Below are positions 612-40,779 of a stretch of DNA of 54,581 bases, one piece after another (the stretch's first letter is position 1; every line of letters begins with the position of its first letter). The stretch spans positions 1 to 54,581 of the forward strand of contig JAYVQT010000034.1 of assembly GCA_043776915.1 (NCBI GenBank), given 5' to 3'. The position numbers and the translations under genes were made by a program. The notes beneath the pieces are model-generated. The model was given only the letters and a program-made list of their open reading frames with translations. It was not told where the DNA came from and ran no database searches. Source of the DNA: Minisyncoccota bacterium (GTDB lineage Bacteria > Patescibacteriota > Minisyncoccia > Phycocordibacterales > UBA9973).

Positions 612-1688
612 ATGGCAAAAGATTACTACGAAATATTAGGCGTACCGAAAGGTGCTTCAAAAGATGAACTTAAAAAGGCTTTTCACAAGCTTGCTCATAA
701 GCATCATCCAGACAAGAATAAAGGTGACGACAAGAAGTTCAAAGAAGTGAATGAAGCCTACCAGACTCTATCAGATGACCAAAAGCGCGCACAATATGAT
801 CGTTTTGGTTCAGATGGCCCACAAGGATTTAATCCAGGACAAGGCGGCGGCGGTTTTGGCGGCTTTGACTTCTCTGGTACTCAAGGTGGTATGGAATTCG
901 ACATGGGTGACCTTGGTGATATCTTTGGCGACTTTTTTGGTGGGGGTGTGCGTGGAAAGCAACCAGCGCGTGGGCGCGACATTTCGACTGAGATAGATCT
1001 CTCTTTCGAAGAATCTATTTTCGGGGTGACACGTAAAGTTTTAATTTCTAAACAGTCAACATGCGACATATGTAAAGGTAATGGTGGTAAGCCAGGTACA
1101 AAGTCAGATACCTGTCAGACGTGTAATGGTAATGGACAGATTCGCGAAGTAAAGCGATCGATCCTTGGAAGCTTCTCAAGTGTCCGCACGTGTGATATGT
1201 GTAACGGTACAGGCAAAATTCCGTCAGAAAAGTGTACAGAGTGTCGTGGAGCAGGAATTCTAAAGAAGCAAGAAGAGATCACGATCAACATTCCAGCTGG
1301 TATCAATCACGGTGAAATGGTTCGCATGACGGGTATGGGTGAAGCGATCAAAGGCGGACAGTCTGGTGACTTGTATATTAAAGTGAATGTGAAGTCGCAT
1401 GCAGTCTACAAACGCGAAGGGTTGAACCTCATGATGGATCTGCCAATTAAGCTCACTGATGCACTTCTAGGTATAGGATATGAACTGAAAACGCTTGAAG
1501 GCGCTATTGTGGAAGTTAAAATTCCAGAAGGAATAAATCATAATGAGTTGCTTCGAGTTCGAGGTAAAGGCGTCCCATCTAACCGTGGACGCGGTGATAT
1601 CATCATTCGTATCCAAGTCCAGATGCCAAAAAAACTTTCTCGTAAATCTAAAGAAATAATTGATGAGCTAAAAAAAGAGGGGATCTAA
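612..1688 (+). CDS. dnaJ: Co-chaperone DnaJ (Hsp40)
   Basis: J-domain with HPD ([10 protein letters not shown]), a G/F-rich linker, and four CxxCxGxG zinc-finger repeats ([32 protein letters not shown]). It is adjacent to dnaK. Confidence 0.95.
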
Positions 1689-1701
1689 TCCTCTCTTTTT
1701 T
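1677..1701 (+). terminator. Intrinsic terminator after dnaJ
   Basis: A 7-bp stem gagggga/tcctctc (one G.U pair) with loop tctaa spans the stop codon and is followed by a T6 run. Confidence 0.6.
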
Positions 1702-1702
1702 G

Positions 1703-1730
1703 TTGACGTTTGCACTCAAAAGAGTATTAT
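1703..1730 (+). promoter_or_regulatory. Near-consensus sigma70-type promoter (TTGACG-N16-TATTAT)
   Basis: -35 ttgacg at 1703-1708 and -10 tattat at 1725-1730, 16-nt spacer. It would start a transcript near 1737 that runs into the terminator at 1938-1963. Confidence 0.5.
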
Positions 1731-1838
1731 TCTGTTAAAATATTTTTTCGTAAAACCCACTAAATTTTCACAGAGTAAAAAAATCATATATCTCCTCCTT
1801 ACTAATTTTAATAACAGGAAGATAAAAAGTTATTTGAA

Positions 1839-1943
1839 ATGGTGGTCAGAACATTCAAAAAAGATTTTTCAAATATCACTGTGTCCATGGAAAAATTTCC
1901 TGAATATTATTATATTCAGGAAAAAATAAAGAAAATGCGTTAA
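1839..1943 (+). CDS. Candidate 34-codon small ORF (MVVRTFKKDFSNITVSMEKFPEYYYIQEKIKKMR) inside a promoter/terminator-bounded unit
   Basis: An ATG..TAA frame not in the ORF track because it is under 60 aa. Its stop lies inside the terminator stem. There is no homology and no clear RBS. It could equally be part of a non-coding RNA. Confidence 0.2.
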   Translation: MVVRTFKKDFSNITVSMEKFPEYYYIQEKIKKMR

Positions 1944-1963
1944 CCAAGAGGTTAACGTTTTTT
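1938..1963 (+). terminator. Intrinsic terminator about 85 nt upstream of the arginine decarboxylase start
   Basis: Perfect 8-bp stem cgttaacc/ggttaacg, 4-nt loop, followed by T6. Confidence 0.65.
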
Positions 1964-2034
1964 ATGTTACCTATTTACATATCCTGTGAGTTTGTTATTA
2001 TTCTTTTATTAATATTTACTGCAGGCGAAATGCT

Positions 2035-2043
2035 TGATATAAA
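2035..2043 (+). promoter_or_regulatory. Extended -10 (TGaTATAAA) 5 nt upstream of the speA ATG
   Basis: tgatataaa at 2035-2043; ATG at 2049. It fits the leaderless pattern seen throughout the window. Confidence 0.4.
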
Positions 2044-2048
2044 GAGAA

Positions 2049-3428
2049 ATGACTAAACGTTCGGTTGCTTCCAAGAAGCTCTGGAAAATTGGTGCCACGG
2101 AGTTCAATACTCAATATTTTGATTTTAATAAGGAAGGTGATCTAATTATTAAAGAAGGTCATAATATTTATAATGTTCGCTACATGGCTGAGAAGTTTGG
2201 AACCTCGCTTGAGATCCTCATGCCTTTTGTTATTGAAGAGCGCCTCGAAGACTTCCTCGACCTGGTCCGCGATCTTTCGAAGAAAGTCGGCTACCAAGGC
2301 AAGTTCTTCTATCACTACCCGATGAAGGTGAATCAGAATAAAGAAGTCGTTATGGCAATTGTGGGTGAAGGTGCTCACCTTGAGACATCATCATATAATG
2401 ACCTCTGGCTTGTGAAGAAAATGCTTGAGCAAGAGACATTCAATCCAAATATTCGTATTCTCTGTTCTGGTCCGAAGACTGATAAATATATCTCTCTTAT
2501 TGATGATCTTCAGCATCGTGGTGTGAAGATTTTCCCACTTATCGAAGGTCCGAACGAGCTCAAGTTTCTACAATATTCAAAGTACGATGTTGGTATCCGA
2601 CTTGATATGCCAATTAAGGCAAGTTCATATTGGAATAAGCCGATTGACCGCTTCGGATTCTCAGCGAAAGAAATTCTCTCGATGGGGTCATTTAAGAATC
2701 TGAAAATTTTGCACTACCATATCGGCTCACAGATAGAGAAGCTCTCAGATGTTATTGCCCCAATCAAGTATGCGCTCGATGTGTACTTTAAAATAAAAGA
2801 GAAGAATCCTATGCTCGACACACTTGATATCGGAGGTGGTATGCCAATTCCATATACTCGCTCAAAGAGCTACCCCGTTGATAAATTGATGGAGAAGATC
2901 TTGAAGCTTATCAAATCAGAATCTGAGAAGCGTGGACTACCACAGCCGAACCTTGTGTGTGAATGGGGCCGCTATATCGTGGCGCCAGCACAGATTACAA
3001 TCTTTAAAGTTATTGACACTAAAGCAATTTCAAATAAAAAAAGCCCAGCCAAGAAGTGGTACGTTATCGACGGAAGCTTTATGAACGATCTTCTGGATAC
3101 CTGGGCGATTGGTCAGAAATGGGCGGTATCACCAGCTAATAATAAGAATGATTCAGATTTGAACGAAGTCTGGCTTGCAGGCTCTAGCTGTGATTCTGAT
3201 GACATTTATACAGGAGTGGATGGTACAGTGACTCTTCCTGACTTTAATTTTGATAATGGTGAGAATATGTATGTCGTTGTTTATGATACTGGAGCATACC
3301 AAGATCCATTGGCAGCGCACCATTGTATGCTCTCATCACCACTTAAGCTTATTGTCGAGAATGGGCACATCGTCGTGGCTCGTAAACGTGAGAGTCCAGA
3401 TGATGTCGGTAAAAATTTTGGTTGGTAG
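2049..3428 (+). CDS. speA: Arginine decarboxylase-like PLP enzyme (fold-III Orn/DAP/Arg decarboxylase family)
   Basis: 459 aa. Motifs are PMKVNQNK (PLP lysine region), HYHIGSQ, DIGGGMP, EWGRYIVA and GSSCDSDD (catalytic Cys retained). These are typical of biosynthetic ADC-type enzymes. Substrate not proven. Confidence 0.8.
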   Translation: MTKRSVASKKLWKIGATEFNTQYFDFNKEGDLIIKEGHNIYNVRYMAEKFGTSLEILMPFVIEERLEDFLDLVRDLSKKVGYQGKFFYHYPMKVNQNKEVVMAIVGEGAHLETSSYNDLWLVKKMLEQETFNPNIRILCSGPKTDKYISLIDDLQHRGVKIFPLIEGPNELKFLQYSKYDVGIRLDMPIKASSYWNKPIDRFGFSAKEILSMGSFKNLKILHYHIGSQIEKLSDVIAPIKYALDVYFKIKEKNPMLDTLDIGGGMPIPYTRSKSYPVDKLMEKILKLIKSESEKRGLPQPNLVCEWGRYIVAPAQITIFKVIDTKAISNKKSPAKKWYVIDGSFMNDLLDTWAIGQKWAVSPANNKNDSDLNEVWLAGSSCDSDDIYTGVDGTVTLPDFNFDNGENMYVVVYDTGAYQDPLAAHHCMLSSPLKLIVENGHIVVARKRESPDDVGKNFGW

Positions 3429-3458
3429 AATTACAAATAAGTTTTATAATATTAAGAT

Positions 3459-4490
3459 ATGCAAAATACAAATCTTCCAACACTTCCAACACTAGAATTT
3501 ATTCTTAAAAATTTCAAAAATTTCAACTCTCGTGCTACTCGCGATGCACTGATTGCATATTGGCGCCATACTGAAAAGGGTGGCAAAATGTTCTGGGCTG
3601 TGGCTGGTGCTATGAGTTCTGCTCAGCTGGGTATTACACTTGCGCCAGCAATTCGCGCCGGACTTATCTCTGGGATGTCAGTAACAGGTGCGAATCTTGA
3701 AGAATCCCTTTTCCGCCTTGTTGCTCATCACAGCTATAAAGATTTTCCAGATTACCGTTATTTCACCAAAGAAGATGATACCAAGATTCTTAAAGACCGT
3801 ATGCGTCGAGTGACCGATACGAGTATTCCTGAAGACGAAGCATTTCGAGTAGTTGAGGGTCTTATTGTACCGACATGGAAAGAAGCGACAGAGAAAGGTA
3901 CACGGAAATTCTGGCATGAGTACTTCTATGATCTCATACAGCAAATTGACAAAACGGATCATGAAGGTGATGCGACTGAGTGCTGGTTACTCGCTGCTGC
4001 CGAGAATAATATTCCGATCGTGGTACCAGGCTATGAAGACTCAACGTTCGGTAATATTTTTGCTTCACATGTCAAAATTGGTGAATGTAGTGCCAGCATT
4101 GCTAAGTCGGGTATTGAGTACATGGGTGCGTGGTATGACCAGTATAAAGAACTTTCGAAAGGTGAGGGCGTTGGATTCTTTCAAATTGGCGGAGGAATCG
4201 CTGGTGATTTTCCAATCTGTGTCGTACCATCAATCAAGTACGACCTCGGCGAAGACGTTAAACCGTGGGCTTACTTCTGTCAGATCTCTGACTCGACAAC
4301 TTCGTATGGTTCGTACTCTGGTGCAACTCCAAATGAAAAGATTACTTGGGATAAGCTTACGAAAGAAACTCCAATGTTCGTCGTCGAATCAGATGCGACT
4401 ATTGTAGTACCACTTATGCTGACCGCTCTTCTTGAATGCATAGCTAATCCTGAAGAAGCGAACAAGTTGATTGCAAAATATAGTATATAG
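3459..4490 (+). CDS. Deoxyhypusine synthase (DHS)-family protein, bacterial DHS-like type
   Basis: Colinear with DHS as I remember it: [10 protein letters not shown] ~ [30 protein letters not shown] ~ [31 protein letters not shown] ~ [35 protein letters not shown] ~ [25 protein letters not shown]. The catalytic Lys position is Gly here. Confidence 0.85.
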   Translation: [343 protein letters not shown]

Positions 4491-4497
4491 TCTAAAT

Positions 4498-4532
4498 AAA
4501 AATACCTACACATACCTAGTATGGGTATTTTT
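4498..4532. terminator. Possible bidirectional terminator between convergent genes
   Basis: aaaaatacc...ggtattttt (9 bp, long loop) or an inner atacc/ggtat hairpin, flanked by A and T runs. A weak call. Confidence 0.35.
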
Positions 4533-4534
4533 AT

Positions 4535-5425
4535 TTATTTTAATGTAGCTTTAAACTTATTGGCAATAATCGTATAGACAAGCTGTGCAGCTCCATATTC
4601 GGTTAATACTGAGTCGCGCTGAGGTGCAACTTCGACAATATCAGCGCCGATAAGGTTCTTTTCTTTTATTACTCTTTCAATAAGTTCGATACCATACCAC
4701 CACTCAAGTCCACCTTGGACCGGCGTGCCAGTACCAGGCATGAAGCTTGGGTCGAAACCATCAACATCAATAGTCAGGTAGACATTTTTCGTTGTGATTG
4801 ATTTTAATATATCTGATATATCAGGAATTTTCTTATTATTACCCCATTCGTATACAGTAATATTATTTTTTGGATTGCTAAAGTAGTTATATTCATCCAC
4901 TGAATAAGTGCGTATGCCGACTTGGACAAGCTTGTAGCCGAGCTCATTCCCACGGTGAAGGACGCATGAGTGTGCATATTTTGATGGGTGACTACTATAA
5001 TCTCCATCATTGTCCCGAAGGTCACAATGAGCGTCTATTTGAAGAATAGTTACATCTTTCGGGTCAGTATGCGTGGCGAGAGCTTGGAATAGCCCAAGGG
5101 AGACTGAGTGCTCGCCACCAAGGAGAAATACAAATTTACCTTTTTTTATAAAACTTTCGCAAACTTCTGTAATTTTTGCCAGCGCTTTCTCTGGTGTTAG
5201 CTTACTAATATTACCTAAATCTTTATGAGCTATTTTTATCTTACTATTCGGCTCACATTTAAATGTCCTATCAAAAAACTCTAGCTTTGTATCAAGGCAT
5301 TTAAGTATAGCTTTCGGGCCATGAATTGTACCCTTACGACTTGAAGCCGTCTTCTCATATGGAGCGCCCACTATAACAACATCTGCATCTTCTAATTTTT
5401 TTGTATTAATGATTCCATGAGTCAT
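4535..5425 (-). CDS. Agmatinase-family ureohydrolase (arginase fold)
   Basis: All Mn-ligand motifs are present: GGEHSVS, QIDAHCDL and TIDVDGFDP. I moved the start to the ATG at 5425 (MTHGIIN...), because a TACTAT -10 box at 5432-5437 lies 6 nt upstream. The track's TTG start at 5440 falls inside that box. Confidence 0.85.
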   Translation of the reverse strand: MTHGIINTKKLEDADVVIVGAPYEKTASSRKGTIHGPKAILKCLDTKLEFFDRTFKCEPNSKIKIAHKDLGNISKLTPEKALAKITEVCESFIKKGKFVFLLGGEHSVSLGLFQALATHTDPKDVTILQIDAHCDLRDNDGDYSSHPSKYAHSCVLHRGNELGYKLVQVGIRTYSVDEYNYFSNPKNNITVYEWGNNKKIPDISDILKSITTKNVYLTIDVDGFDPSFMPGTGTPVQGGLEWWYGIELIERVIKEKNLIGADIVEVAPQRDSVLTEYGAAQLVYTIIANKFKATLK

Positions 5426-5431
5426 GTCGAC

Positions 5432-5437
5432 ATAGTA
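5432..5437 (-). promoter_or_regulatory. -10 box (TACTAT) 6 nt upstream of the ureohydrolase ATG
   Basis: The reverse complement of atagta at 5432-5437. The spacer gtcgac then leads to the ATG at 5425-5423. Confidence 0.45.
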
Positions 5438-5478
5438 CAAAAAATAAGCTTATTTTGCAATTAACTAAAGGAAAAACA

Positions 5479-5487
5479 TGATATAAT
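5479..5487 (+). promoter_or_regulatory. Extended -10 (TGaTATAAT) 6 nt upstream of the EamA transporter ATG
   Basis: tgatataat at 5479-5487; ATG at 5494; no SD. Implies a leaderless mRNA. Confidence 0.55.
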
Positions 5488-5493
5488 ACTTAT

Positions 5494-6390
5494 ATGAGTA
5501 CGGAATTACTAGTAGCGATACTTGCAGGTCTCGGAAGTATGATTGGCTGGGGTTTTGCCGATTTCTTTGCTAAAAAAACTATAGATAAGATTGGAGATAT
5601 AAATACTTTGTTTTGGAGTCAACTATTTGGAATTATACCACTTGATATTTTATTCCTCATAAACCCAACAATTCCCGGCAAATTAGCAGGTAATGGTTTT
5701 ATACTGGTAATAATTTTAGGCATATGGAGTGGTTTTTCATATATACCCACTTATATTGCATTCGGAAAAGGTAAAGTAAGTCTAATCAGTCCGATATTTG
5801 CTTCCTATGCAGTACTTGTGGCAATTCTTTCGGCTGTCTTTCTGCAGGAAATAATCCCACTGGGTCGCCAAATAGCTTTTTTTGTGGTGTTTGTAGGAAT
5901 TCTTCTTATCAGCATTAATCTTAAAAATATTTTCAGTCTGAAAAAAAGTAATACAAATACACCACACGAACCAGTAAAAGGCTTAAAAGAAATATTGTTT
6001 TCCGTTATATTTTTTTCGATTTGGTTTATTGCACTAGATAAATTTATTAGCGGCGAGAATTGGGTTCCAATTCTTTTATTGATAAGAATATTTTCTGCTC
6101 TATCTCTTTTTGTATATGCAAAAATTAGAAATATAAGTCTGAGTGTAACGGATCAATCACTTTGGAAATATTTATTGATGATAGGATTGTTCGACGTAGG
6201 AGCATTTTCTGCCACTTCATACGGCTTTAGCCATACTTCATATGTTAGTGTCGTAGCAATGCTTGGAAGTGCTTTTTCAGTACCTACAATTATTCTAGCA
6301 AGAGTTTTCTTGAAAGAAAAAGTAACATTGTATCAGACAGCGGGAAGTATTGTTGTGATTATGGGTATTATGCTATTGTCTTTATTATAG
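5494..6390 (+). CDS. EamA/DMT-family transporter (10-TM drug/metabolite transporter)
   Basis: 298 aa, two internally repeated 5-TM halves and hydrophobic throughout, which is the typical EamA architecture. Confidence 0.7.
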   Translation: MSTELLVAILAGLGSMIGWGFADFFAKKTIDKIGDINTLFWSQLFGIIPLDILFLINPTIPGKLAGNGFILVIILGIWSGFSYIPTYIAFGKGKVSLISPIFASYAVLVAILSAVFLQEIIPLGRQIAFFVVFVGILLISINLKNIFSLKKSNTNTPHEPVKGLKEILFSVIFFSIWFIALDKFISGENWVPILLLIRIFSALSLFVYAKIRNISLSVTDQSLWKYLLMIGLFDVGAFSATSYGFSHTSYVSVVAMLGSAFSVPTIILARVFLKEKVTLYQTAGSIVVIMGIMLLSLL

Positions 6391-6398
6391 ATCAATTT

Positions 6399-7553
6399 AT
6401 GAGAAAAGAACCCCAACAAACAAATAGATTTTTTGAGTTTAATAAAATTAAAAGTTTTAAAAAAGTAACTCCATTCTTTCTTTTCAATAAACAAGCCATA
6501 ATATCGAATCTCAATGAATACAAAAGTTCAATGCCAAAAAATACCGAAATTTGTTACGCGATGAAAGCAAACTCAGAAGAAATAGTTTTGAAAACATTAA
6601 AAGAAGCAGGTGCGAGTTTTGAAGTGGCATCAAAGTATGAGTTGGAATTACTTAAAAAAATAAAAGTTGATCCTAAAAAAATTATTTATGGAACTGCTGT
6701 AAAACCTGCCAACCATATATCAAGTTTTACTAAGTATGGCGTAGATAGATTTGCTTTTGATTCACTTCAAGAATTAGAAAAAATTGCAAAATACGCGCCA
6801 GGTGCTCGTGTGTATTTGCGAGTAATTGTTGATGATAAATCAGACAGCGTTTTCAATATGTCAGAAAAATTTGGTTCCCCGCTCGATAATACAGTTTTCT
6901 TACTCTTGAAGGCTTTAGAATTGAAACTTGTGCCATATGGTATTAGTTTCAACGTAGGATCACAGGCGCGAAACAAACATGCATGGACTAGAGGTATAAA
7001 AGATATATCTCATACAATGAAGGAACTTCAAAAAAAAGGTGTAAAAATTGACGTAATAAATCTGGGAGGTGGTTTTCCATTTAGTTATCAAAAAGGAGAT
7101 GGATTTTCTGGAATAAGAGAAATTGCTAAATCTATAAAATCTTCTATAAAATTTATTCCCCATAAAGTATCATTTATAGTTGAGCCTGGAAGAGGTATTG
7201 TTACAAATTCTTACTGTTTGATTACTAGTATTATCGCTACAAATAAGAGACCTAATGGGAATTGGCTGTATACCGATGCCGGAGTATACAATGCATTACT
7301 TGAAGCTACAAAAGGCCAAGGTAGTACAATGTATAAAGTAATGACAATAAAGCAAGATTCTCATAGATCAAAACAATCGTATGTATTGAGTGGGCCAAGT
7401 GGAGACAATATAGATATTATTAACCCGCATATTTTTCTAGCAAAAAATATACAAGTTGATGATCTAATTATTATCTACGATGTGGGTGCATATTCATTCA
7501 CTCTCGCTACACCTTTTAACGGTTTTCCCGTACCTAAAACGTACTTAATTTAA
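6399..7553 (+). CDS. Second fold-III PLP decarboxylase (ornithine/lysine/DAP decarboxylase-like)
   Basis: Motifs are CYAMKANS (PLP Lys), NLGGGFP, VEPGRGIV, TDAGVYNAL and YDVGAYSF..TPFNGFP. The expected GPTCD catalytic Cys motif reads GPSGD. Confidence 0.8.
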   Translation: MRKEPQQTNRFFEFNKIKSFKKVTPFFLFNKQAIISNLNEYKSSMPKNTEICYAMKANSEEIVLKTLKEAGASFEVASKYELELLKKIKVDPKKIIYGTAVKPANHISSFTKYGVDRFAFDSLQELEKIAKYAPGARVYLRVIVDDKSDSVFNMSEKFGSPLDNTVFLLLKALELKLVPYGISFNVGSQARNKHAWTRGIKDISHTMKELQKKGVKIDVINLGGGFPFSYQKGDGFSGIREIAKSIKSSIKFIPHKVSFIVEPGRGIVTNSYCLITSIIATNKRPNGNWLYTDAGVYNALLEATKGQGSTMYKVMTIKQDSHRSKQSYVLSGPSGDNIDIINPHIFLAKNIQVDDLIIIYDVGAYSFTLATPFNGFPVPKTYLI

Positions 7554-8228
7554 TTATTTTCTAATTATAGGAGCAATCATTGTTTTTGCTTGCCAATATT
7601 CACAATCAGGTGGAGTATCTAGATTACAGATTTCGAAACTAATATTTTCTTTTTTAAATCCTGCTTCAAGTAATTTCTCCATGTGGTTTTCAGAAAAATC
7701 TGTAGCCTCATCAGAATAATAAGTAAAAATTCCACTTGGCTTCAACATCCTAAAAGCCTCTTTGAAAAACCAAAAATGATTTCCATGTACTTCTTCTTCT
7801 GTCAAAGGGTAAGTGTCAAACAATATCCCATCTAAAGATTCATTCGCTATCATCGGAGTGATATCTTCCCAAAAACCGGTTAACAAGTGTAATTTATTTG
7901 ATTCGATTGCATTCTTTTGATCTATAATACATTTTTCGATAACTCCAATATTACATTCAATAATATAGTGATTATCAATTTTTACAGACTGAATTGCATT
8001 AGCTGAAAGTCCAAGGCCATATCCTAACTCAAGGATTTTACCACCATTTTGCGTAGCGATTCTAGCAAGGGTATTCATATAGTTTAGCTCCCAGTCTTCC
8101 ATAACAGGGTGCCCAGCTATCTTTAAGCTGTGTTTATCATATACTGCTTCTTTTTTTATCCAATCTTCCTTTTTAGTTACAAACCCGATGTTTTTTCTTG
8201 TTTCTATGGTGTTTATTTTATTGCCCAT
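7554..8228 (-). CDS. Guanidinoacetate N-methyltransferase (GAMT)/Rmt2-family SAM methyltransferase
   Basis: Colinear along its whole length with vertebrate GAMT as remembered:
- HPVMEDWELNYMNTLA ~ KPVMERWETPYMHALA
- GGKILELGYGLGLSANAIQ ~ GGRVLEVGFGMAIAASKVQ
- IDNHYIIECN ~ IDEHWIIECN
- FWEDITP..LDGILFDTYPLTEEE ~ LWEDVAP..FDGILYDTYPLSEET
- FRMLKPSGIFTY ~ FRLLKPGGVLTY
- LLEAGFKKENI..PPDCEYW ~ LLEAGFRRENI..PPADCRYY. Confidence 0.85.
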   Translation of the reverse strand: MGNKINTIETRKNIGFVTKKEDWIKKEAVYDKHSLKIAGHPVMEDWELNYMNTLARIATQNGGKILELGYGLGLSANAIQSVKIDNHYIIECNIGVIEKCIIDQKNAIESNKLHLLTGFWEDITPMIANESLDGILFDTYPLTEEEVHGNHFWFFKEAFRMLKPSGIFTYYSDEATDFSENHMEKLLEAGFKKENISFEICNLDTPPDCEYWQAKTMIAPIIRK

Positions 8229-8251
8229 ACTATAATTCTATTGGTTAAATC

Positions 8252-8279
8252 TATATTATATATTATATATTATATATCA
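8252..8279. repeat. Heptanucleotide tandem repeat (tatatta x3 plus tatatca) in a divergent promoter region
   Basis: Read directly from the sequence. It lies between the GAMT-like gene (-) and the membrane-protein gene (+). Confidence 0.8.
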
Positions 8280-8316
8280 TTGACCTCAAAGCTCAAAAGA
8301 CCTATAATATTAACAC

Positions 8317-9126
8317 ATGACAAATACTTACCAGAAGGTTTTAGTGGGCTATTTAGTACTATTGGTTATATATTGGTTAATACTATCTAATAGTCACTCT
8401 ACTGACAGTATTTACAATTTTCTCTATTCATTCCTGTTTAGTTTAATACCACTTCTTGGTGGGTTTATAGGAATGATAAAGTCAAAAATTTGGGGCATGT
8501 TTACAAGCTCTCTTGGTAAGGCAATATTTTTCATTTCACTTGGAATTTTCTTATGGGGAATGGGTAGTATAGTATGGTCATATTACAATTTAATCGTACA
8601 TATTGAGATGCCTTATCCATCCCTTGCTGATCTAGGTTTTGCTCCTAGTATATTTTTCTATGGACTCGGTGCAATGTATTTATCGAAAGCAACCGGAGCG
8701 AAATTTGGCTTAAGAAGTAAATTTGCCAAAACCGGGATAGTTCTTACGCTCATAGCTTTACTTGCTCTATCTTATTATTTTCTAATTGTTGTTGCTCGTG
8801 GTGGAGTACTCATTCCAGAAGGCGAAACCGTGCTCAAAACTATATTAGATATTGCATATCCACTAGGAGATTTTGTTGGCCTATCAATTGCAATAATTGT
8901 ATCTGGTCTGTCATTTAAATATTTAGGAGGAAGATATGTGCCTGATGTAATGATGATATTGCTCGGACTTGCTATTATGTATTTTGCAGACTTTCTATTT
9001 TCTTATAGCACTACAGTTGGAACATTTTATAATGGAGACAAAGGGGATTTATTGTTAACATTCGGATTATTTTCAATAACATATGGAGCTATGGGTTTTT
9101 TCAAACTTAAAACTAGTAATTCATGA
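8317..9126 (+). CDS. Polytopic membrane protein of unknown function (about 7-8 TM)
   Basis: 269 aa, hydrophobic throughout. Its stop overlaps the start of the next ORF (ATGA). A TATAAT box at 8303-8308 lies 8 nt upstream of the ATG. Confidence 0.6.
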   Translation: MTNTYQKVLVGYLVLLVIYWLILSNSHSTDSIYNFLYSFLFSLIPLLGGFIGMIKSKIWGMFTSSLGKAIFFISLGIFLWGMGSIVWSYYNLIVHIEMPYPSLADLGFAPSIFFYGLGAMYLSKATGAKFGLRSKFAKTGIVLTLIALLALSYYFLIVVARGGVLIPEGETVLKTILDIAYPLGDFVGLSIAIIVSGLSFKYLGGRYVPDVMMILLGLAIMYFADFLFSYSTTVGTFYNGDKGDLLLTFGLFSITYGAMGFFKLKTSNS

Positions 9127-9431
9127 TTGCCACATCCATTTTAACCACTATGACAATATTTTCACGAATGTCATCACGAATAATTAAAGAACAAGAATTG
9201 ATCATCGGACCAGTGGCTTGGTCTGAAGCTCTCAAGGTACAAGGTTTGCACGTTGTCGACCAAAAGGCTGGTGAAGTGACAATTGATGGTGATGAGAAAA
9301 ATGTGATAAATAATCTTGTGGCACAGTATGCTCGTCTTTTCGGAAAAGCTTCAAATGAAGTATGTAAAGAAGCTGTTCAGGATTTGATAAAAGAATTACC
9401 AATAGAACAAATACCCGCTAGTCTAATATAA
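9123..9431 (+). CDS. Small soluble protein of unknown function, translationally coupled to the upstream membrane protein
   Basis: 102 aa, 4-nt ATGA overlap with the upstream gene. It is followed 8 nt later by the histidine-kinase core gene. Confidence 0.5.
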   Translation: MIATSILTTMTIFSRMSSRIIKEQELIIGPVAWSEALKVQGLHVVDQKAGEVTIDGDEKNVINNLVAQYARLFGKASNEVCKEAVQDLIKELPIEQIPASLI

Positions 9432-9439
9432 TATATAAT

Positions 9440-10288
9440 ATGTCCGACTTACCAAATAGTGAAGTACCCCAAAATGAATTTAAAGAGATTACAGAAGAGC
9501 TGTATGTAAAGAATTTGGAGTTAGTAAATTTGAATAAAGAAAATGCTCGTTTGAATACTGAGCTAAAAATTGCCAATGAAAAACTTCAAGACTTGGACAA
9601 ATTGAAGACAGAATTTCTTTCACTTGCGTCTCACCAATTACGCTCACCTCTGACTGCTATTAAAGGCTATGCATCTATGGTTATTGAAGGTGATTTTGGT
9701 CAAATATCCAAAGAAGCTCATGATGCTGTCGAACGTATTTTCCAATCGAGTCAGAACTTAGCTAAGATTGTCGAAGACCTACTTAATGTTTCTAAAATTG
9801 AACAAGGCGGCATGAAGTACGAAATGGCACCATTTGATCTGACTATTATTGCACGAGATATGACTAAAGATCTCTCTATTACAGCAGAAAAAAAAGGATT
9901 AAAAATGACATTTGAAACAGATAGCACGAAAGAGTTTATGGTAAACGGCGATAAAGAGAAAATCCGCCAAGTCATTCTCAACTTAATTGATAACTCGATA
10001 AAATATACGAAAGAAGGAGGAGAAATAAAAGTGTCTCTAAAGAAAATAGATTCAAAAGTTATTTTTGCTGTTGCTGATAGTGGTATGGGTATGACACCAG
10101 AAATTAAAGCAACATTATTCCAGAAGTTTGCTCGCGGTGAAGGGGCGCGTATGAATACCGGTGGTTCAGGTCTTGGACTGTATTTGGCTAAAGAAATCGT
10201 CGAAGCACACAAGGGTCACGTCTTTGTAGACTCAGAAGGTATGGGTAAAGGTTCAATATTTTCTATGGAACTTGATCTTATGTCTTAG
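9440..10288 (+). CDS. Histidine kinase core (coiled coil, HisKA and HATPase_c) with no TM or sensor domain
   Basis: H-box SHQLRSPLTAIKGY, N-box NLIDNSIKYT, G1 DSGMGM and G2 GGSGLGL. There is no hydrophobic N-terminus. Confidence 0.9.
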   Translation: MSDLPNSEVPQNEFKEITEELYVKNLELVNLNKENARLNTELKIANEKLQDLDKLKTEFLSLASHQLRSPLTAIKGYASMVIEGDFGQISKEAHDAVERIFQSSQNLAKIVEDLLNVSKIEQGGMKYEMAPFDLTIIARDMTKDLSITAEKKGLKMTFETDSTKEFMVNGDKEKIRQVILNLIDNSIKYTKEGGEIKVSLKKIDSKVIFAVADSGMGMTPEIKATLFQKFARGEGARMNTGGSGLGLYLAKEIVEAHKGHVFVDSEGMGKGSIFSMELDLMS

Positions 10289-11657
10289 ATACTTTACTTC
10301 CGTCATCTGTATCACTTACTTCATAACCTAAGTCTTTAATTTTATCTCGAAGTTTGTCGCTCTTAGCCCAATCTTTATCTGTGCGGGCTTGCTCACGCTC
10401 TCTGACAAGTGTCGTTACTTCTTCAGATATGATTTCTGTTTTTAAATCTGAAAGTCCAAAACCGAACACAGTATCGAAGTCGAGCATAGTTGCTTTCTTG
10501 TCAGTATCAGAAACTTCATTATCGTGTATGAGTTCCCAAAGTAATGCGAGTGCTTTTGGAATATCTAAGTCGTCGTCCATGAATGTTATAAAGCGGTTCT
10601 TGTAACTGTGCTCTACTAAGCCTACATCTTCACCTAAATTTTTAAATGCTTCATATAAACGACCAAGGGCAACTTGGCTTCCCTCTACAGCGTCAAGTGT
10701 AAAGTTCGTCTGTGTACGATAGTGAGCTGTACAGAGCCATAATCGAAAGGCGAGTGGATCTATACCTTTTTCTATTAAGTCTCGAAGTGTGTAGAAATTG
10801 CCAAGTGATTTAGACATTTTTTTCCCGTCTACCATTAGGTGTTCATTATGCATCCAGTATTTTACAAATGGCTTACCTGTTGCACATTCGGACTGGGCTA
10901 TTTCATTCTCATGATGAGGGAATATAAGATCAACTCCGCCAGTGTGGATATCAAAGCTTTCACCAAGTTCGGTCATGCTCATAGCTGAGCATTCTATATG
11001 CCAACCTGGGCGACCTTTGGAAAGCATAGTATCTCTTTCTAATATTTCAGCTGGATTCCAGAATACTTCACCATCGGCTTTGTCCCATGCTTTCCATAAA
11101 GCAAAATCTGTGGCATTCTCTTTTTCGTATTCATCTTTTTTAATTCTTCCCTCGGCATTTTCTTTCAGGTCAGATACAGTAACATGCGAAAGTTTACCGT
11201 ACTCTTTATCTTTGGCAATAGAGAAGTATACTGATCCGTCGTCTGTTGTATACGCAGAACCATTTGTAAGTAGCTTTTCAATAAGTTCAAGCATTTCTTG
11301 TATGTAGTCGGTGGCCTTGGTATAGGTAGTCGGCGCGGTAATATGTAAACTATCTCGATCTTTAAAAAATCCTTCTGTATAAAATTCAGTAAAAGCTCTA
11401 AGCGTCTTACCTTCTTTTTGACTGTCGCGAATTATCTTATCATCCACATCAGTAATGTTCATAACGTGATCGACATCATACTCTCGGTAGGTTAAGTATC
11501 TCTTAAGCATATCAGTAAAAACATAGGCTCGGTAGTTACCAATATGTGGATAGTTATAGACCGTTGGACCACATGTATACAAACCTACGCTTCCTTTATT
11601 ACGAGGCGTAAATTCTTCTTTTGTACGAGAAAGTGAGTTAAAAAGTATTAGAGCCAT
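10278..11657 (-). CDS. cysS: Cysteinyl-tRNA synthetase
   Basis: Class I motifs HIGN (PHIGNYRAY) and KMSKS (KMSKSLGN), plus the CysRS-type HIECSAMS zinc site region. 459 aa. Confidence 0.93.
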   Translation of the reverse strand: MALILFNSLSRTKEEFTPRNKGSVGLYTCGPTVYNYPHIGNYRAYVFTDMLKRYLTYREYDVDHVMNITDVDDKIIRDSQKEGKTLRAFTEFYTEGFFKDRDSLHITAPTTYTKATDYIQEMLELIEKLLTNGSAYTTDDGSVYFSIAKDKEYGKLSHVTVSDLKENAEGRIKKDEYEKENATDFALWKAWDKADGEVFWNPAEILERDTMLSKGRPGWHIECSAMSMTELGESFDIHTGGVDLIFPHHENEIAQSECATGKPFVKYWMHNEHLMVDGKKMSKSLGNFYTLRDLIEKGIDPLAFRLWLCTAHYRTQTNFTLDAVEGSQVALGRLYEAFKNLGEDVGLVEHSYKNRFITFMDDDLDIPKALALLWELIHDNEVSDTDKKATMLDFDTVFGFGLSDLKTEIISEEVTTLVREREQARTDKDWAKSDKLRDKIKDLGYEVSDTDDGSKVSKT

Positions 11658-27705: not shown

Positions 27706-27870
27706 ATAATTAGAGATTTATTTACATGGCAGGACTCAAAAAGCTCCCAGCCAGATACATAAGTTTCCCCATATAGCCCGTCAAGGCGAACTCTGACTAG
27801 GAGTTCTTCGACCTTGACGGGACTTATTCACCATGCCGCCGATTACTCGAAGGTTTAGGCTACTTTCTTA
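27706..27870 (-). promoter_or_regulatory. Structured, GC-enriched 5' leader candidate upstream of the PG-binding protein gene
   Basis: By hand count, about 49% G+C over 27721-27860. Extended hairpin at 27777-27821: the outer stem cccgtcaagg/ccttgacggg is 10 bp perfect and the inner stem gaactc/gagttc is 6 bp. No T-run follows on either strand. The class is not identified. Confidence 0.35.
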
Positions 27871-28001
27871 TTTAGTAATGCTTCTAAAGCATACAATAAA
27901 ATGATAAGATATACTAGTACAATGTTCACAACATGCACATATTCACGAACTCCGATGATGTTGCCTATCTATACAAAACTTGGTTTCGGTTTTTATTCTC
28001 A

Positions 28002-28010
28002 TGGTATAAT
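28002..28010 (+). promoter_or_regulatory. Extended -10 (TGgTATAAT) 6 nt upstream of the ATG at 28017
   Basis: tggtataat at 28002-28010. This supports the internal ATG as the true start. Confidence 0.55.
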
Positions 28011-28016
28011 AGACTT

Positions 28017-28349
28017 ATGGCAACCGTCAAACAAAAATTAGCCCTAGAAAATATCGTGGAAAATCATGGAAATATAGGAAAAGCAATGAAAAATGCAGGA
28101 TACAGTGATAACACAGCAAAGAATCCTAAGAATCTAACTGAGAGTAAGGGTTATCAATCTCTCTTGGAATCATGTGGACTTACAAGAAACTTTGTCATTT
28201 CAGCACTAGTAGAAGACATTAGAAACAAACCGCAGAATAGAGGACGTGAGCTGGCAATTGCAATCGACTTACTAGGTCTTAATGATATTGATCCAGAAAA
28301 AGATGATAAGTTGGTAATTAATGTTACAAACTTTCGTACGAGGAAATAA
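28017..28349 (+). CDS. Small HTH protein resembling phage terminase small subunits (TerS, Terminase_2-like N-terminus)
   Basis: KQKLALENIVENHGNIGKAMKNAGYSDNTAKNPKNLTESKGY matches the TerS N-terminal pattern (..F..EY....N...A...AGYS..tA......L). 110 aa from ATG 28017; the upstream extension in the track overlaps the promoter. Confidence 0.5.
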   Translation: MATVKQKLALENIVENHGNIGKAMKNAGYSDNTAKNPKNLTESKGYQSLLESCGLTRNFVISALVEDIRNKPQNRGRELAIAIDLLGLNDIDPEKDDKLVINVTNFRTRK

Positions 28350-28375
28350 AAAGTACAACAGGTGTGTTCGGCAGA

Positions 28376-28400
28376 AGTGAGTTGCCTTACTCATTTTTTT
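28376..28400 (+). terminator. Intrinsic terminator after the TerS-like gene
   Basis: 7-bp stem agtgagt/actcatt (one G.U pair), loop tgcctt, followed by a T-run. Confidence 0.55.
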
Positions 28401-28487
28401 GATTCTAAAACACATTAATGTTAATATAGCAATGTGCCTATAGATCAGAGAAAGAAGCGTTTTTATTATTTTTTAATTTACAAATCT

Positions 28488-29486
28488 ATGAAAAAAGTAC
28501 TCCTCCTCACGTTTTTATTGCTTTTTATTTTAAATATATCAAAAGTATATGCAACTCAAGGAGCTTGTTCTTCTCATTTTGGAGTAAATTGTAGTACGGG
28601 AATGAGCACAACAGGTAATGTTATTTGTAATGATGGCTGGACTGATAGTAGTGTTGCTTATACAGATATGAATGAATGTATGAATAAATTATCTTGTACT
28701 CAAGCTGAGTATGACGCACTTGAGTCAAAATATGGGGTACTTGATGACTCAGGCCAACTTAATACAATTACTGGTCAGATAAATGATATATACAGTCAGA
28801 AACAAGATCTAGTAAATCAGATGAATAATTTAGATTCACAAACCTTAAATGGAATCCAGCAATCTGGTGGAATAGTAACTGCGGGACAATTGAGAAATAT
28901 TGAATTAAATAAATTAAATGATTTAAAAAATAAAAATAGACAATTGACTGAACAATATAATCAATTAAAATCTCAAGGTGATAGTCTACAGCTTAATATG
29001 ACCAATAAGACTACTCAAGTAAATAATGACTGTCACCAAATGGCGGTATCTGGATTATACGCAAAAATGAATAAGATTATAGCTGCTAGACAAATACAAT
29101 CTCAAGTAAATAATAATCAAGACAGTACACCAATAATTAATAAACAGAAGACAGAGATTGTTACTAAAACTTCTGCAAAAATGACACCAGAAGCAGAATG
29201 TTTAATGCTTTGGGGAGAGCACACTCATCCAAGTAAGGATAAATCAGAAGATATACTTTCTTCATTTTCTACTTGTGCGTGTGATAAGGGTTACTTTTTC
29301 CCTTCCTTTACGATATATAATGCCAAAATCAACAAATGCACGCTAATTAAAAATATAGATAGCGTGGCAAAATTACAACAAGTAACGACACTGCCTTCTA
29401 AGCCTATTGTTACTGAAAATCTAAATATCAAAGTACCTTGGTATAAAAAATTCTTTAATTTTCTTCCAAAATTTAAATTTTGGTAA
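28488..29486 (+). CDS. Secreted protein with Cys-rich N- and C-terminal modules around a Q/N-rich coiled coil
   Basis: Signal peptide MKKVLLLTFLLLFILNISKVYA. Cys-rich segments are GACSSHFGVNCS..VICNDGW..NECMNKLSC and EAECLMLWG..STCACDKGY..NKCTL. The start is set at ATG 28488 (the track gives GTG 28434). Confidence 0.6.
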   Translation: MKKVLLLTFLLLFILNISKVYATQGACSSHFGVNCSTGMSTTGNVICNDGWTDSSVAYTDMNECMNKLSCTQAEYDALESKYGVLDDSGQLNTITGQINDIYSQKQDLVNQMNNLDSQTLNGIQQSGGIVTAGQLRNIELNKLNDLKNKNRQLTEQYNQLKSQGDSLQLNMTNKTTQVNNDCHQMAVSGLYAKMNKIIAARQIQSQVNNNQDSTPIINKQKTEIVTKTSAKMTPEAECLMLWGEHTHPSKDKSEDILSSFSTCACDKGYFFPSFTIYNAKINKCTLIKNIDSVAKLQQVTTLPSKPIVTENLNIKVPWYKKFFNFLPKFKFW

Positions 29487-29571
29487 ATTTATTAATTTAA
29501 AAATAAAATTAAATACATACAATATTATATCAGTATAACTACTTGTTGTTTTAATATCGTAATATATAGAT

Positions 29572-30276
29572 ATGGAAATTAAGAATTATTCATCGTTAAT
29601 TACAGAAGGTGTAGAAATATGCAAAAAGGCTCAAGAATTTTCTGAGATTGATTTCTTCCCTCTACTTACAAGAGATATGATATTTGATATTGTAACTCGG
29701 TATCAAAGTTGGTTAGATACTATAATAAAATTTTTAGAAATTAAGTTAAGTAATAATGATACAAGAATTACATTCTTTCAAGAAGCTGATGGAATACCCA
29801 GTAATATTTATATTCTTTCTAATTATAAATACATGTTTGGGGGTTCAGATGAGTCAATAAAATTAATGAAGGATATGGTAATAGAAACTAGAAAAAAAAT
29901 AAATTATCTAAGAGAAATAGAACAGGAAGAATCTAGTAATGTAAATGATTTATTTACCTTTACTTTAACTAAGGATGGTCTTCTTTCTAGAAAAAAACCT
30001 ATTCCAGGTGATAAGTCTTATTCTATGGATAAAGGGTCTAGGCGGCATAAGATTATAGAAGCACTAGTATCAAATAAAAATGATAATTTTGTTTCAACAG
30101 GAGATCTCGCAGAAATAGTCAGTTGTGAAGAGGTAGAAACCCGCAAAACTTGTGGAGAAATTAGAAAACAAATTATGCAGCACTTTGCTGGAATAAAGGT
30201 AAAAGAAATCATTGATTCCAAAACAGGTAGTGGCTACCGTATTAATCCAAAAGCCAAAATAATTATTATTCCATAG
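29572..30276 (+). CDS. Hypothetical protein with a C-terminal OmpR/PhoB-type winged-helix DNA-binding domain
   Basis: The C-terminus RRHKIIEALVSNKNDNFVSTGDLAEIV...TRKTCGEIRKQI...IDSKTGSGYRINP follows the trans_reg_C pattern (..L..L......vsr..L..........v.v.I..LRkKl....I.tvrg.GYrl). There is no receiver domain. Confidence 0.5.
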   Translation: MEIKNYSSLITEGVEICKKAQEFSEIDFFPLLTRDMIFDIVTRYQSWLDTIIKFLEIKLSNNDTRITFFQEADGIPSNIYILSNYKYMFGGSDESIKLMKDMVIETRKKINYLREIEQEESSNVNDLFTFTLTKDGLLSRKKPIPGDKSYSMDKGSRRHKIIEALVSNKNDNFVSTGDLAEIVSCEEVETRKTCGEIRKQIMQHFAGIKVKEIIDSKTGSGYRINPKAKIIIIP

Positions 30277-30308
30277 TACGCCCAATATGCCTGCCAATAA
30301 CAGTTATC

Positions 30309-30331
30309 AAAGCCTTATATAAGGCTTTTTT
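30309..30331 (+). terminator. Intrinsic terminator
   Basis: 8-bp stem aaagcctt/aaggcttt, loop atat, followed by a T-run. Confidence 0.65.
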
Positions 30332-30432
30332 GCTATGCATAGCGTACCAACGAAGGATATTTTTTGATTCTATTAAATGGTCTAATCTACATAATTCTCA
30401 ATAAAGAAGATTAACATTAATTTACAAAAAAT

Positions 30433-30720: not shown

Positions 30721-30732
30721 AATTGAAATTAT

Positions 30733-32469: not shown

Positions 32470-32496
32470 AAATGTTATAATTAAAACATTCAATTT

Positions 32497-40778: not shown

Positions 40779-40779
40779 T

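Follow-up and report, generated by a model that had tools for sequence, protein, structure and literature searches.

Organization of the Locus

The locus described here lies on contig JAYVQT010000034.1 of a Minisyncoccota bacterium (assembly GCA_043776915.1), a member of the Candidate Phyla Radiation (CPR). The window, by which we mean the whole stretch of DNA that was analyzed, comprises 54,581 nucleotides (54.6 kb of the genome) and has a GC content of ~38%. This value, the genes present and the source names of their homologs place it in CPR/Patescibacteria. Near its beginning, genes for two pyridoxal 5'-phosphate (PLP) decarboxylases, a homolog of deoxyhypusine synthase (DHS), a ureohydrolase, a transporter and a homolog of guanidinoacetate methyltransferase (GAMT) stand next to genes for a membrane protein, a small protein and a histidine kinase. 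The features of the locus are as follows.

1974-2001, plus strand: promoter-like site TTTACA-16-TATTAT, located by scan, upstream of the arginine decarboxylase gene
2049-3428, plus strand: short PLP arginine decarboxylase (ADC) of the alanine racemase (AR) fold, 459 aa, predicted to convert arginine to agmatine
3459-4490, plus strand: DHS homolog, probably of the SpeY/CdmS type, 343 aa, predicted to convert two agmatines to N1,N9-bis(guanidino)homospermidine with NAD+
4535-5440, minus strand: Mn ureohydrolase of the agmatinase family (SpeB/"diagmatinase"-like), predicted to convert bis(guanidino)homospermidine to homospermidine and two urea
5494-6390, plus strand: EamA/DMT-family transporter with ~10 transmembrane (TM) helices (two PF00892 repeats; hydropathy), predicted amine exporter/exchanger
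6399-7553, plus strand: second decarboxylase, an AR-fold PLP enzyme of the ornithine decarboxylase (ODC) family with a variant active site (Orn_Arg_deC_N, 172 bits); candidate substrates arginine, ornithine and lysine
7554-8228, minus strand: prokaryotic GAMT-like class I S-adenosylmethionine (SAM) methyltransferase, 224 aa, predicted guanidino-N methyltransferase
8229-8316, no strand: AT-rich divergent promoter region of 88 nt between the GAMT-like gene and Mem269
8317-9126, plus strand: Mem269, polytopic membrane protein with ~6-7 TM helices (hydropathy), putative membrane sensor component
9123-9431, plus strand: p102, small soluble protein of 102 aa (relatives ~90-100 aa), always after Mem269
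9440-10288, plus strand: soluble histidine kinase core, 282 aa (HisKA and HATPase_c by Pfam; no TM segment)

The six genes from the ADC gene to the GAMT-like gene very probably belong to two independent modules that adjoin each other in the interval from dnaKJ to cysS, a variable locus. Module A extends over 2049-5440 and holds the trio of ADC, DHS-like and ureohydrolase genes, and module B extends over 5494-10288. The trio, recognized by its ADC, DS and Arginase genes, occurs together in three other CPR contigs (L085-L087; loci sampled for comparison are cited by such L numbers) in which EamA, the second decarboxylase and the GAMT-like gene are absent, and in L085 and L087 it follows dnaK-dnaJ, as it does in the window. 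The closest relatives of the GAMT-like protein (66-68% identity; L091-L093) are encoded at loci without the trio. The gene order of L087 is dnaK-dnaJ-[ADC..DS..Arginase..]-HK-cysS-corA-rplU-recR-dnaB, where HK is a histidine kinase gene, and that of L089 is dnaK-dnaJ-[EamA-DC2-Mem-p87-HK]-cysS-corA-rplU-recR-dnaB, where DC2 is the second decarboxylase gene and the trio is missing. The window locus holds both of these gene sets. Because L089 and L087 share their flanks but carry different gene sets, and because the GC content at third codon positions (GC3) is 0.32-0.43 in the trio and 0.22-0.27 from EamA through p102, the dnaJ-cysS interval is a variable, mosaic locus, and only in this lineage do the two modules adjoin. 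A simple insertion of the block 5494-9431 into an L087-like locus was also considered and was dropped in view of L089, which has the same flanks and EamA-DC2-Mem-p87-HK between them with no trio.

A single modified-polyamine pathway made up of all six genes, in which the GAMT-like enzyme would methylate the agmatine or the bis(guanidino)homospermidine (G44G) of module A and EamA would export the product, is improbable. The genes are physically contiguous, and module A would supply both agmatine and G44G in a form that a guanidino methyltransferase could use. However, the trio and module B are each conserved at loci where the other is absent, GC3 differs between the two halves, and the second decarboxylase would have no role in such a route. 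The loci of the GAMT-like gene speak against it as well. One genome per species (GTDB) was scanned with an alignment of GAMT-like proteins, which gave 80 loci with 10-kb flanks, and tblastn with the window proteins found no SpeY-like or SpeB-like gene near any of them; in a count of 84 GAMT-like loci, no such gene lies within 10 kb. Matches to the ADC near these loci were weak (~25%) and coincided with the ODC-like gene; one such gene lies ~4 kb off in L025.

An earlier note on this DNA had proposed such a six-gene cluster. Its coordinates for the six open reading frames (ORFs) were all borne out, and its family assignments were upheld by Pfam, NCBIfam and phmmer searches against the PDB; each of the six genes has hundreds to thousands of homologs. 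The note was also right that the ureohydrolase keeps its Mn ligands, all six positions aligning with those of solved agmatinases, and that the GAMT homolog is genuine and lies outside every described polyamine route. Its statement that enzymes of the classical aminopropyl routes are missing agrees with our search of the window, in which the non-overlapping ORFs of at least 110 aa have no Pfam domain of spermidine synthase, AdoMet decarboxylase or saccharopine/carboxynorspermidine (CANS) dehydrogenase. A SpeD-like protein used as query in tblastn likewise had no match in the window. These negatives apply to the 54.6 kb of the window and do not bear on the rest of the genome. The single-pathway hypothesis, in contrast, largely fails: the trio and the EamA-decarboxylase(-GAMT) set each recur separately with different GC3, the DHS-like protein falls with the homospermidine-forming type, the second decarboxylase is an ODC-family member, and the six-gene synteny is not kept. 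The methylated guanidino product that the note suggested survives as an idea for a separate two-enzyme module and not as the outcome of one six-gene pathway.

The Predicted Homospermidine Pathway of Module A

In Thermus thermophilus, CdmS/SpeY couples two agmatines to N1,N9-bis(guanidino)homospermidine, also known as caldomycin or diagmatine, and SpeB converts this compound to homospermidine (PMC10981699). The same reaction has been reported for SpeY homologs of diverse phyla (Li et al. 2026; PMC13625781). All seven homologs tested so far make G44G, and one of them came from a cluster of Winogradskyella algicola that consists of an ancestral AR-fold ADC, SpeB and SpeY (PMC13625781). Judged by these characterized homologs, module A encodes, in all likelihood, the published SpeY/CdmS route from agmatine through G44G to homospermidine. 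The short AR-fold ADC would first form agmatine. The DHS homolog, with NAD+ and its conserved catalytic lysine, would then join two agmatines into N1,N9-bis(guanidino)homospermidine, from which the Mn ureohydrolase would strip both urea groups to leave homospermidine. Module A resembles the SpeY/CdmS system in its three enzyme classes and their neighborhood, in the retained catalytic lysine and in the non-acidic residues that stand where human DHS has Asp243 and Asp316; in both, putrescine would be bypassed and urea released last. The second decarboxylase is not needed for this route. The region is thus centered on agmatine, as the earlier note had claimed, and its view that a DHS-like NAD enzyme would extend agmatine to a longer guanidino-polyamine from which urea is removed last is upheld.

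The ADC carries the Orn_Arg_deC_N domain, its best NCBIfam model is speA (182 bits, with the N-terminal half covered), and its best matches in the PDB are the SpeA ADCs of E. coli, Vibrio and Campylobacter. The alignment to these enzymes skips ~100 aa at the site of the four-helix bundle (query 325->334 vs chain 380->482), and the K, H, GGG, E/R, CDSD and GAY motifs are all present. An "ancestral AR-fold ADC" has been described (PMC8503589, PMC13625781), and the ADC of the Winogradskyella ADC-SpeB-SpeY cluster is likewise of the AR fold without the four-helix bundle (PMC13625781). The window protein is 79-82% identical to the orthologs encoded beside the DS and Arginase genes in the CPR contigs L085 and L087. 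Its gene ends 30 nt upstream of the DHS-like gene, an arrangement kept in both contigs, and the ADC orthologs there are preceded by the same TTTACATAT / TGCTATTAT blocks and a conserved leader.

The DHS-like protein matches PF01916 (DS) with 125 bits. In an alignment to human and archaeal DHS it retains the equivalents of the catalytic Lys329 and of Glu323 of the human enzyme (...PNEKITWDK...), and it has Asn in place of Asp243 (STFGN) and Tyr in place of Asp316 (GSYSGA). Both Asp positions are non-acidic in T. thermophilus CdmS as well, where Phe204 and Leu286 occupy them (PMC10981699), so that the two enzymes agree in lacking the acidic residues and differ in what replaces them. Leu at the Asp316 position is also found in archaeal "probable DHS" structures, and the feature is therefore not exclusive to SpeY. 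The motif SYGSYSGATPNEKITWDKLT, a 20-residue active-site stretch, is identical in all 120 of the 120 top CPR homologs. The CPR clade has more than 8000 database matches, with 83-90% identity across CPR classes, and the orthologs in L085 and L087 are 86-90% identical to the window protein. In L086, the DHS-like protein (84% identity) is more conserved than its partners, the ADC (48%) and the ureohydrolase (65%).

Two results weigh against assigning this protein to SpeY. The SpeY-type models of NCBIfam score far below their cut-offs (99.5 vs 450 and 63.8 vs 500 bits), which, together with the unusual conservation within CPR, sets the protein apart from the characterized SpeY/CdmS system (64-100 bits vs cut-offs of 450-500), and the protein scores nearly as high on archaeal DHS models (75-90 bits). 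These two results, together with a sequence conservation that extends to an invariant active-site stretch, could be explained if the DHS-like protein modified a protein, for example through a hypusine-like change of a translation factor, and were no polyamine enzyme at all. We regard this alternative as very improbable. Both of the Asp residues with which human DHS binds spermidine have been exchanged for others, as in the agmatine-coupling enzyme, the synteny with the ADC and ureohydrolase genes is kept, and the ADC is likewise ~80% conserved in the same comparisons. The DHS-like protein most likely represents a distinct, divergent, CPR-specific clade of the SpeY kind that works as SpeY does.

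The ureohydrolase gene is adjacent and convergent to the DHS-like gene. Its ORF reaches 5440 with a TTG start, and an ATG at 5425 is equally plausible. The protein exceeds the cut-off of the agmatinase model TIGR01230 (221.7 vs 174.3 bits), its six Mn-ligand positions (GGEHS, DAHCD, DVDGFD) match those of solved agmatinases, and it is 65-72% identical to orthologs encoded next to DS genes in L086 and L087. Its top match in the PDB is 3pzl from Thermoplasma volcanium, which has been characterized as an aminopropylagmatine ureohydrolase (APAUH), an enzyme of a long substrate (PMC10599626).

This match, the supply of agmatine and the presence of a second fold-III decarboxylase would also suit the carboxyaminopropylagmatine (CAPA) route to spermidine, which the earlier note had named as one that uses the enzyme classes found here. 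The note was mistaken with respect to the condensing enzyme. In Synechocystis, the route consists of CAPA dehydrogenase (CAPADH), CAPA decarboxylase (CAPADC) and APAUH; CAPADH belongs to the saccharopine dehydrogenase family (PF16653) and not to the DHS family, being ~40% identical to the carboxyspermidine and carboxynorspermidine dehydrogenases (CASDH/CANSDH), and CAPADC is closely related to the corresponding decarboxylases (CANSDC/CASDC) (PMC10599626). The CAPA route was rejected for the window, where neither a gene of the saccharopine dehydrogenase family nor a decarboxylase of the CANSDC type is present: no ORF of at least 110 aa has a PF16653 domain, and the second decarboxylase is ODC-like and reaches 31.2 bits on the nspC model (TIGR01047) against a cut-off of 409. 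We consider it hardly credible that the cluster encodes this pathway. Module A shares with it the start at agmatine, the absence of putrescine and a final ureohydrolase acting on a long guanidino-polyamine; the difference is that the condensing enzyme here is a DHS homolog, for which homospermidine and not spermidine is the expected product.

Module A extends the agmatine-dependent homospermidine pathway, described in 2024 and 2026, to CPR/Patescibacteria as a new and divergent, if not surprising, member. The DHS-like enzyme is among the most conserved proteins of the sampled loci, which suggests that homospermidine is the core polyamine of these minimal-genome symbionts. The divergent clade is also available for testing the claim that all SpeY enzymes make diagmatine.

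The Module B Operon

The core of module B is a conserved CPR operon that consists of genes for EamA, an ODC-family decarboxylase, a ~7-TM protein, a small protein and a histidine kinase. The order EamA-DC2-Mem-p92 is co-directional and conserved both with and without a GAMT-like gene, and in most loci the histidine kinase gene comes directly next. The EamA gene of the window lies 8 nt upstream of the second decarboxylase gene, and the same pairing is found in L003-L011 and L088-L093. L088-L090 have EamA-decarboxylase-Mem-p92 and no GAMT-like gene; the kinase gene is immediately next in L088 and L089 and lies ~3 kb further on in L090. Near GAMT-like genes, EamA is present in 8 loci, and the set of membrane protein, small protein and kinase that follows downstream is present in ~11; in 33 of 81 loci, no more than 6 kb separates the GAMT-like gene from a histidine kinase gene.

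The second decarboxylase has its best PDB matches in a Selenomonas lysine/ornithine decarboxylase (2e-46), in eukaryotic ODCs and in the ADC of PBCV-1 (3e-37). According to a motif table and an alignment to 5gjm, it retains the PLP-binding lysine, EPGR, GGGF, Asp332, Asp361 and the tyrosine of GAY. It departs from ODC at three active-site positions, numbered as in Trypanosoma brucei ODC: Asp88 is replaced by Glu, His197 by Asn (SFNVGS) and Cys360 by Gly (GPSGD). In ODC, Cys360 is the C-alpha proton donor and His197 stacks on PLP. Among the 120 closest homologs (P0255-P0374), Gly replaces the Cys in 104, while 15 have Cys and 1 has Ala; Asn replaces the His in 80, and Glu stands for Asp88 in all. 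The clade-wide Gly for the catalytic Cys may indicate an altered reaction, for example decarboxylation-dependent transamination. The homologs of this decarboxylase largely share their contigs with GAMT-like matches.

ODC homologs of the AR fold have been neofunctionalized to ADCs in Ca. Fonsibacter, Rhodopila, Rhodothalassium and PBCV-1 (PMC13625781; PDB 2nv9), and the co-occurrence of SpeY with an AR-fold ODC has been reported only for alpha-Proteobacteria and Coxiella (PMC13625781). The window places SpeY with an AR-fold ODC homolog outside that range. It is like the neofunctionalized systems in that an ODC-family protein stands alongside SpeY and a guanidino-directed enzyme, with arginine as a plausible substrate; it is unlike them in that the CPR genome also has a dedicated ADC and in that the clade has Gly for the catalytic Cys and Asn for the PLP-stacking His.

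Mem269 matches no Pfam or NCBIfam family and is 49-64% identical to the proteins at the same position in L001-L011, L030, L068 and L088-L090. A homolog of Mem269 also forms the C-terminal 250 aa of a 716-aa NB-ARC protein in L001 (GCA_964497535; 10951-13101). The start of p102 overlaps the stop of Mem269 by 4 nt; p102, too, has no family match in Pfam or NCBIfam, and it is conserved at 41-67% identity in loci that carry Mem269. The histidine kinase is 73% identical to the kinase that ends the EamA-DC2-Mem-p87 operon of L089. The idea that Mem269 and p102 represent the split N-terminal sensor of the longer L087 kinase was rejected: BLASTP found no similarity, and an HMM of Mem269 matched no kinase N-termini. 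The divergent region between the GAMT-like gene and Mem269 contains the best promoter-like site of an 8.8-kb scan (8280-8308, plus strand; TTGACC-17-TATAAT, 11/12) and two promoter-like sites on the minus strand (8296-8269 and 8289-8262; 10/12 each). A short (ATATATT)n-like repeat occupies 8250-8280 in the same spacer.

The GAMT-Like Methyltransferase Family

The GAMT-like protein has no match in the local copies of Pfam and NCBIfam, and NCBIfam holds no model for the family; its precomputed Pfam family is PF27704. Its relationship to GAMT is clear from phmmer against the PDB (human GAMT, 3orh, 1e-47; rat GAMT, 1xcj, 1e-45) and from an AlphaFold model (pLDDT 80), for which Foldseek gives a TM-score of 0.82 to 3orh and 1xcj at 42% identity. 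The protein is ~41% identical to rat GAMT and 41-45% to vertebrate GAMT. The equivalents of Glu45 (VMEDWE) and Asp134 (FDTYP) are invariant in ~80 prokaryotic homologs. Glu45 reportedly binds the guanidino group and the backbone of Leu170 and Thr171 the carboxylate of guanidinoacetate, as Komoto et al. are said to have found in 2004. Asp134 is the catalytic base (PMC12471008). All prokaryotic members lack 13 aa at rat positions 168-180 and have an invariant TYYSDE, the placement of the gap being ambiguous. The acidic YSDE would suit a cationic distal group of the substrate, which is only a lead.

In the window, the GAMT-like gene abuts the stop codon of the decarboxylase gene in antisense orientation, and in L091 and L092 it is co-directional inside the operon. 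It is an optional accessory insert in the operon with its own putative promoter. Its placement at the same spot in either orientation suggests that its tie to the operon is functional and not a matter of chance.

The family forms 76 clusters at 50% identity (E <= 1e-30) and is found in Saccharibacteria, many other CPR lineages and DPANN archaea, as well as in Smithella, Silanimonas, Aquimonas and Coxiellaceae. Its cultured members include two actinomycetes, Streptoalloteichus hindustanus DSM 44523 (L041) and Streptomyces iconiensis DSM 42109 (L067). Both are genetically tractable hosts in which the substrate of the family could be sought; their neighborhoods were left out here on account of unreliable ORF calling in high-GC DNA. 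In IMG/VR, the search patterns used returned no viral relatives of this gene. A second small-molecule N-methyltransferase, of the NNMT/PNMT/TEMT family, is encoded beside the GAMT-like gene in L001 (7729-8511).

The neighbors of the GAMT-like genes fall into several kinds. Among the 80 species-level genomes, an AR-fold ODC-like decarboxylase is the neighbor in 17 loci and a pyruvoyl SpeD-like protein in 20. Most of the SpeD-like proteins lack the Pro of the HTWPE motif that marks true AdoMet decarboxylase, and SpeD homologs of CPR and DPANN have been found to have become arginine or ornithine decarboxylases (PMC10407285). A large membrane kinase, a 236-aa protein and a regulator of the OmpR type usually accompany the SpeD-like protein. 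The order in the Parcubacteria-type loci (L030-L084; for example L056 5958-7046 and L060 9995-11811) is OmpR-type regulator, GAMT-like protein, SpeD-like protein, 236-aa protein and membrane histidine kinase; the 236-aa protein has no match in Pfam, NCBIfam or the PDB. An amidinotransferase (StrB1 5e-95, AGAT 1e-62) is encoded beside the GAMT-like gene only in L039, L040 and L082, which are from Bacillota, Desulfobacterales and Thioploca, and L039 (9300-13200) and L040 add a LysE exporter, a GNAT protein and an SDR protein. These amidinotransferase loci possibly encode a bacterial route to creatine-like or methylated amidino compounds. EamA, LysE or MFS transporters recur beside GAMT-like genes. 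The non-homologous decarboxylases and the amidinotransferases share the capacity to generate arginine-derived guanidino amines.

Literature searches on methylagmatine, on bacterial GAMT and on the polyamines of Saccharibacteria yielded no biochemical study of the family, whose members carry "creatine" labels given by homology, for example as a viral auxiliary metabolic gene, and are annotated as GAMT in JGI and KEGG-style resources. These annotations, the identity of 41-45% to vertebrate GAMT with conserved catalytic residues and the three non-CPR loci with an adjoining AGAT-like amidinotransferase would agree with a true guanidinoacetate methyltransferase that makes creatine. For the window protein, however, this is very unlikely. 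Tblastn of the window with an amidinotransferase found no match; all prokaryotic members have the acidic YSDE and are missing the 13 aa that lie in or close to the loop for guanidinoacetate; and the partner genes here encode decarboxylases. The prokaryotic systems are thus like the vertebrate AGAT-GAMT pair in their clear GAMT homology, in their Glu45 and Asp134 equivalents and, at a few loci, in the neighboring AGAT/StrB1-type amidinotransferase. They differ from it in these missing 13 aa and the invariant acidic YSDE, in having a basic-amino-acid decarboxylase as partner (here and in 37 of 80 genomes), in the attached transporter and sensor kinase and in their hosts, the tiny-genome CPR and DPANN.

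A role as an aminopropyltransferase that uses decarboxylated SAM supplied by the SpeD-like neighbors was also considered, spermidine synthases being the next-best structures (TM-score ~0.65). It was judged unlikely because motif I is GAMT-like, most of the SpeD-like neighbors lack the Pro of AdoMet decarboxylase, and the partner in the window is a PLP enzyme.

Proposed Function of Module B

On balance, we favor the explanation that module B is a separate operon making a methylated guanidino amine, next to the SpeY route of module A. The second decarboxylase would convert a basic amino acid, most likely arginine, to its amine. The conserved Glu/Asp pair of the GAMT-like enzyme would hold a guanidino nitrogen, and the enzyme would methylate this nitrogen with SAM to give an N-methylagmatine-type product; in an alternative order, arginine would be methylated before it is decarboxylated. 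Transport of the methylated product, or of the amine without its methyl group, through the membrane would fall to EamA, and regulation of the operon to Mem269, p102 and the kinase. The parts of this explanation differ in their strength. The GAMT-like enzyme quite probably acts on a small molecule with a free guanidino group, and the gene neighborhoods point to the methylation of arginine-derived amines, which would be followed by export under two-component control. It is a tentative and somewhat doubtful proposal that the substrate is the product of the decarboxylase or agmatine. Further still, and rather unlikely, is the generalization that the prokaryotic GAMT-like proteins form an unrecognized family of free-guanidino N-methyltransferases which, together with a basic-amino-acid decarboxylase (PLP-dependent and ODC-like here, pyruvoyl-dependent and SpeD-like in other loci) and a DMT, LysE or MFS exporter, would produce a secreted N-methylagmatine-type amine.

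Several observations weigh against this explanation. The second decarboxylase has Asp at the Asp332 position of ODC, as ornithine and lysine enzymes do, and its nearest solved relative is a lysine/ornithine decarboxylase; similarity to PDB entries and the known determinants do not assign its substrate. The active-site motifs of the GAMT-like proteins are the same whatever the neighboring gene, and the prokaryotic members are 47-63% identical to one another, little above the ~41% to rat GAMT. Given such uniform motifs and near-equal identities, a common substrate that is unrelated to the decarboxylase, even guanidinoacetate, is conceivable. The GAMT-like gene is partnered in 9-12 loci with that of a GARS-like ATP-grasp enzyme, which makes no guanidino group; these loci also carry a second type of EamA and a kinase. 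The operon of L088-L090 runs without a GAMT-like gene, and the methyltransferase must therefore be dispensable for its core role. Finally, much of the co-occurrence is found within CPR, and the loci are not phylogenetically independent.

Some of these observations would also fit if module B were a system of amino-acid decarboxylation and exchange. Ornithine or lysine would then be converted to putrescine or cadaverine, EamA would exchange or export this amine in the service of pH, energy or polyamine supply, and the GAMT-like protein would have an unrelated substrate, which might be free arginine, free guanidine, guanidinoacetate or, as for yeast Rmt2, protein arginine. The lysine/ornithine-type relationship and retained Asp residues of the decarboxylase, the operons without a GAMT-like gene and the constancy of the GAMT-like motifs across different neighbors all accord with this alternative. 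So does the grouping of decarboxylase, transporter and sensor, which resembles that of AdiA/AdiC, SpeF/PotE and CadBA/CadC. AdiA-AdiC, SpeF-PotE and CadA-CadB with the CadC sensor are inducible amino-acid decarboxylase/antiporter systems. Like them, module B is an operon in which a basic-amino-acid decarboxylase is encoded along with a transporter and a sensor or regulator linked to the membrane. It differs in that its decarboxylase is of fold III (ODC-like) and not fold I, its transporter is of the DMT/EamA and not the APC type, its sensor consists of a 7-TM protein, a small protein and a soluble histidine kinase, and many members have an additional methyltransferase. The placement of the GAMT-like gene is difficult to reconcile with an unrelated substrate: it is set exactly between the decarboxylase and Mem269 in 17 loci and is co-directional within the operon in L091 and L092. 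In other lineages its partner is a decarboxylase of unrelated fold or an amidinotransferase, and such a pattern is difficult to account for unless there is a metabolic link to a producer of guanidino compounds. A pure exchange system is accordingly a minority reading to which we give some weight, and the methylated guanidino amine is the reading we retain.

Module B combines known enzyme families in a new way and is, as a testable hypothesis, a genuine lead. Its methyltransferase belongs to a group of GAMT homologs with an intact guanidino-methylating active site that have been labeled "creatine synthesis" by homology only. If the proposal is correct, the product would belong to a metabolite class not yet described for bacteria and widespread in CPR and DPANN symbionts, and the pathway would be a new branch of bacterial arginine/polyamine metabolism. 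An N-methylagmatine-type amine might also be sensed through the 7-TM protein, the small protein and the kinase as a signal or host-interaction molecule. The operon would thereby gain a function in organisms in which most genes matter, and the family would have a bearing on the origin of animal GAMT.

Other Features of the Window

By Pfam, the other 47 ORFs of the window include dnaK/dnaJ, aminoacyl-tRNA synthetase genes, dnaB, recR, ftsW, murG and gatB, together with further housekeeping genes for glycolysis, the pentose-phosphate pathway and ATP synthase. An E-value scan of 1600-10400 with Rfam for a riboswitch or leader gave nothing credible. Further along, a LOOT RNA (Rfam RF03000) lies at 27746-27861 on the minus strand with 64.8 bits (gathering score 46.4), between the gene of a peptidoglycan-binding protein and a series of ORFs that match no known family. 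Four ORFs (138, 350, 234 and 456 aa), which have no Pfam match, fall within 27933-34209, where GC drops to as low as 0.30 at 28-30 kb. They are followed by a serine recombinase gene (32497-34176), whose 3' end overlaps tRNA-Leu(taa) at 34127-34209, and the interval 27933-34209 has the appearance of an integrated element with the tRNA gene as its insertion site. A Fic/DOC protein is encoded at 37994-38542. Transketolase is split into an N-terminal ORF at 39909-40778 and a C-terminal ORF at 40582-41781, with an overlap of ~200 nt as called.

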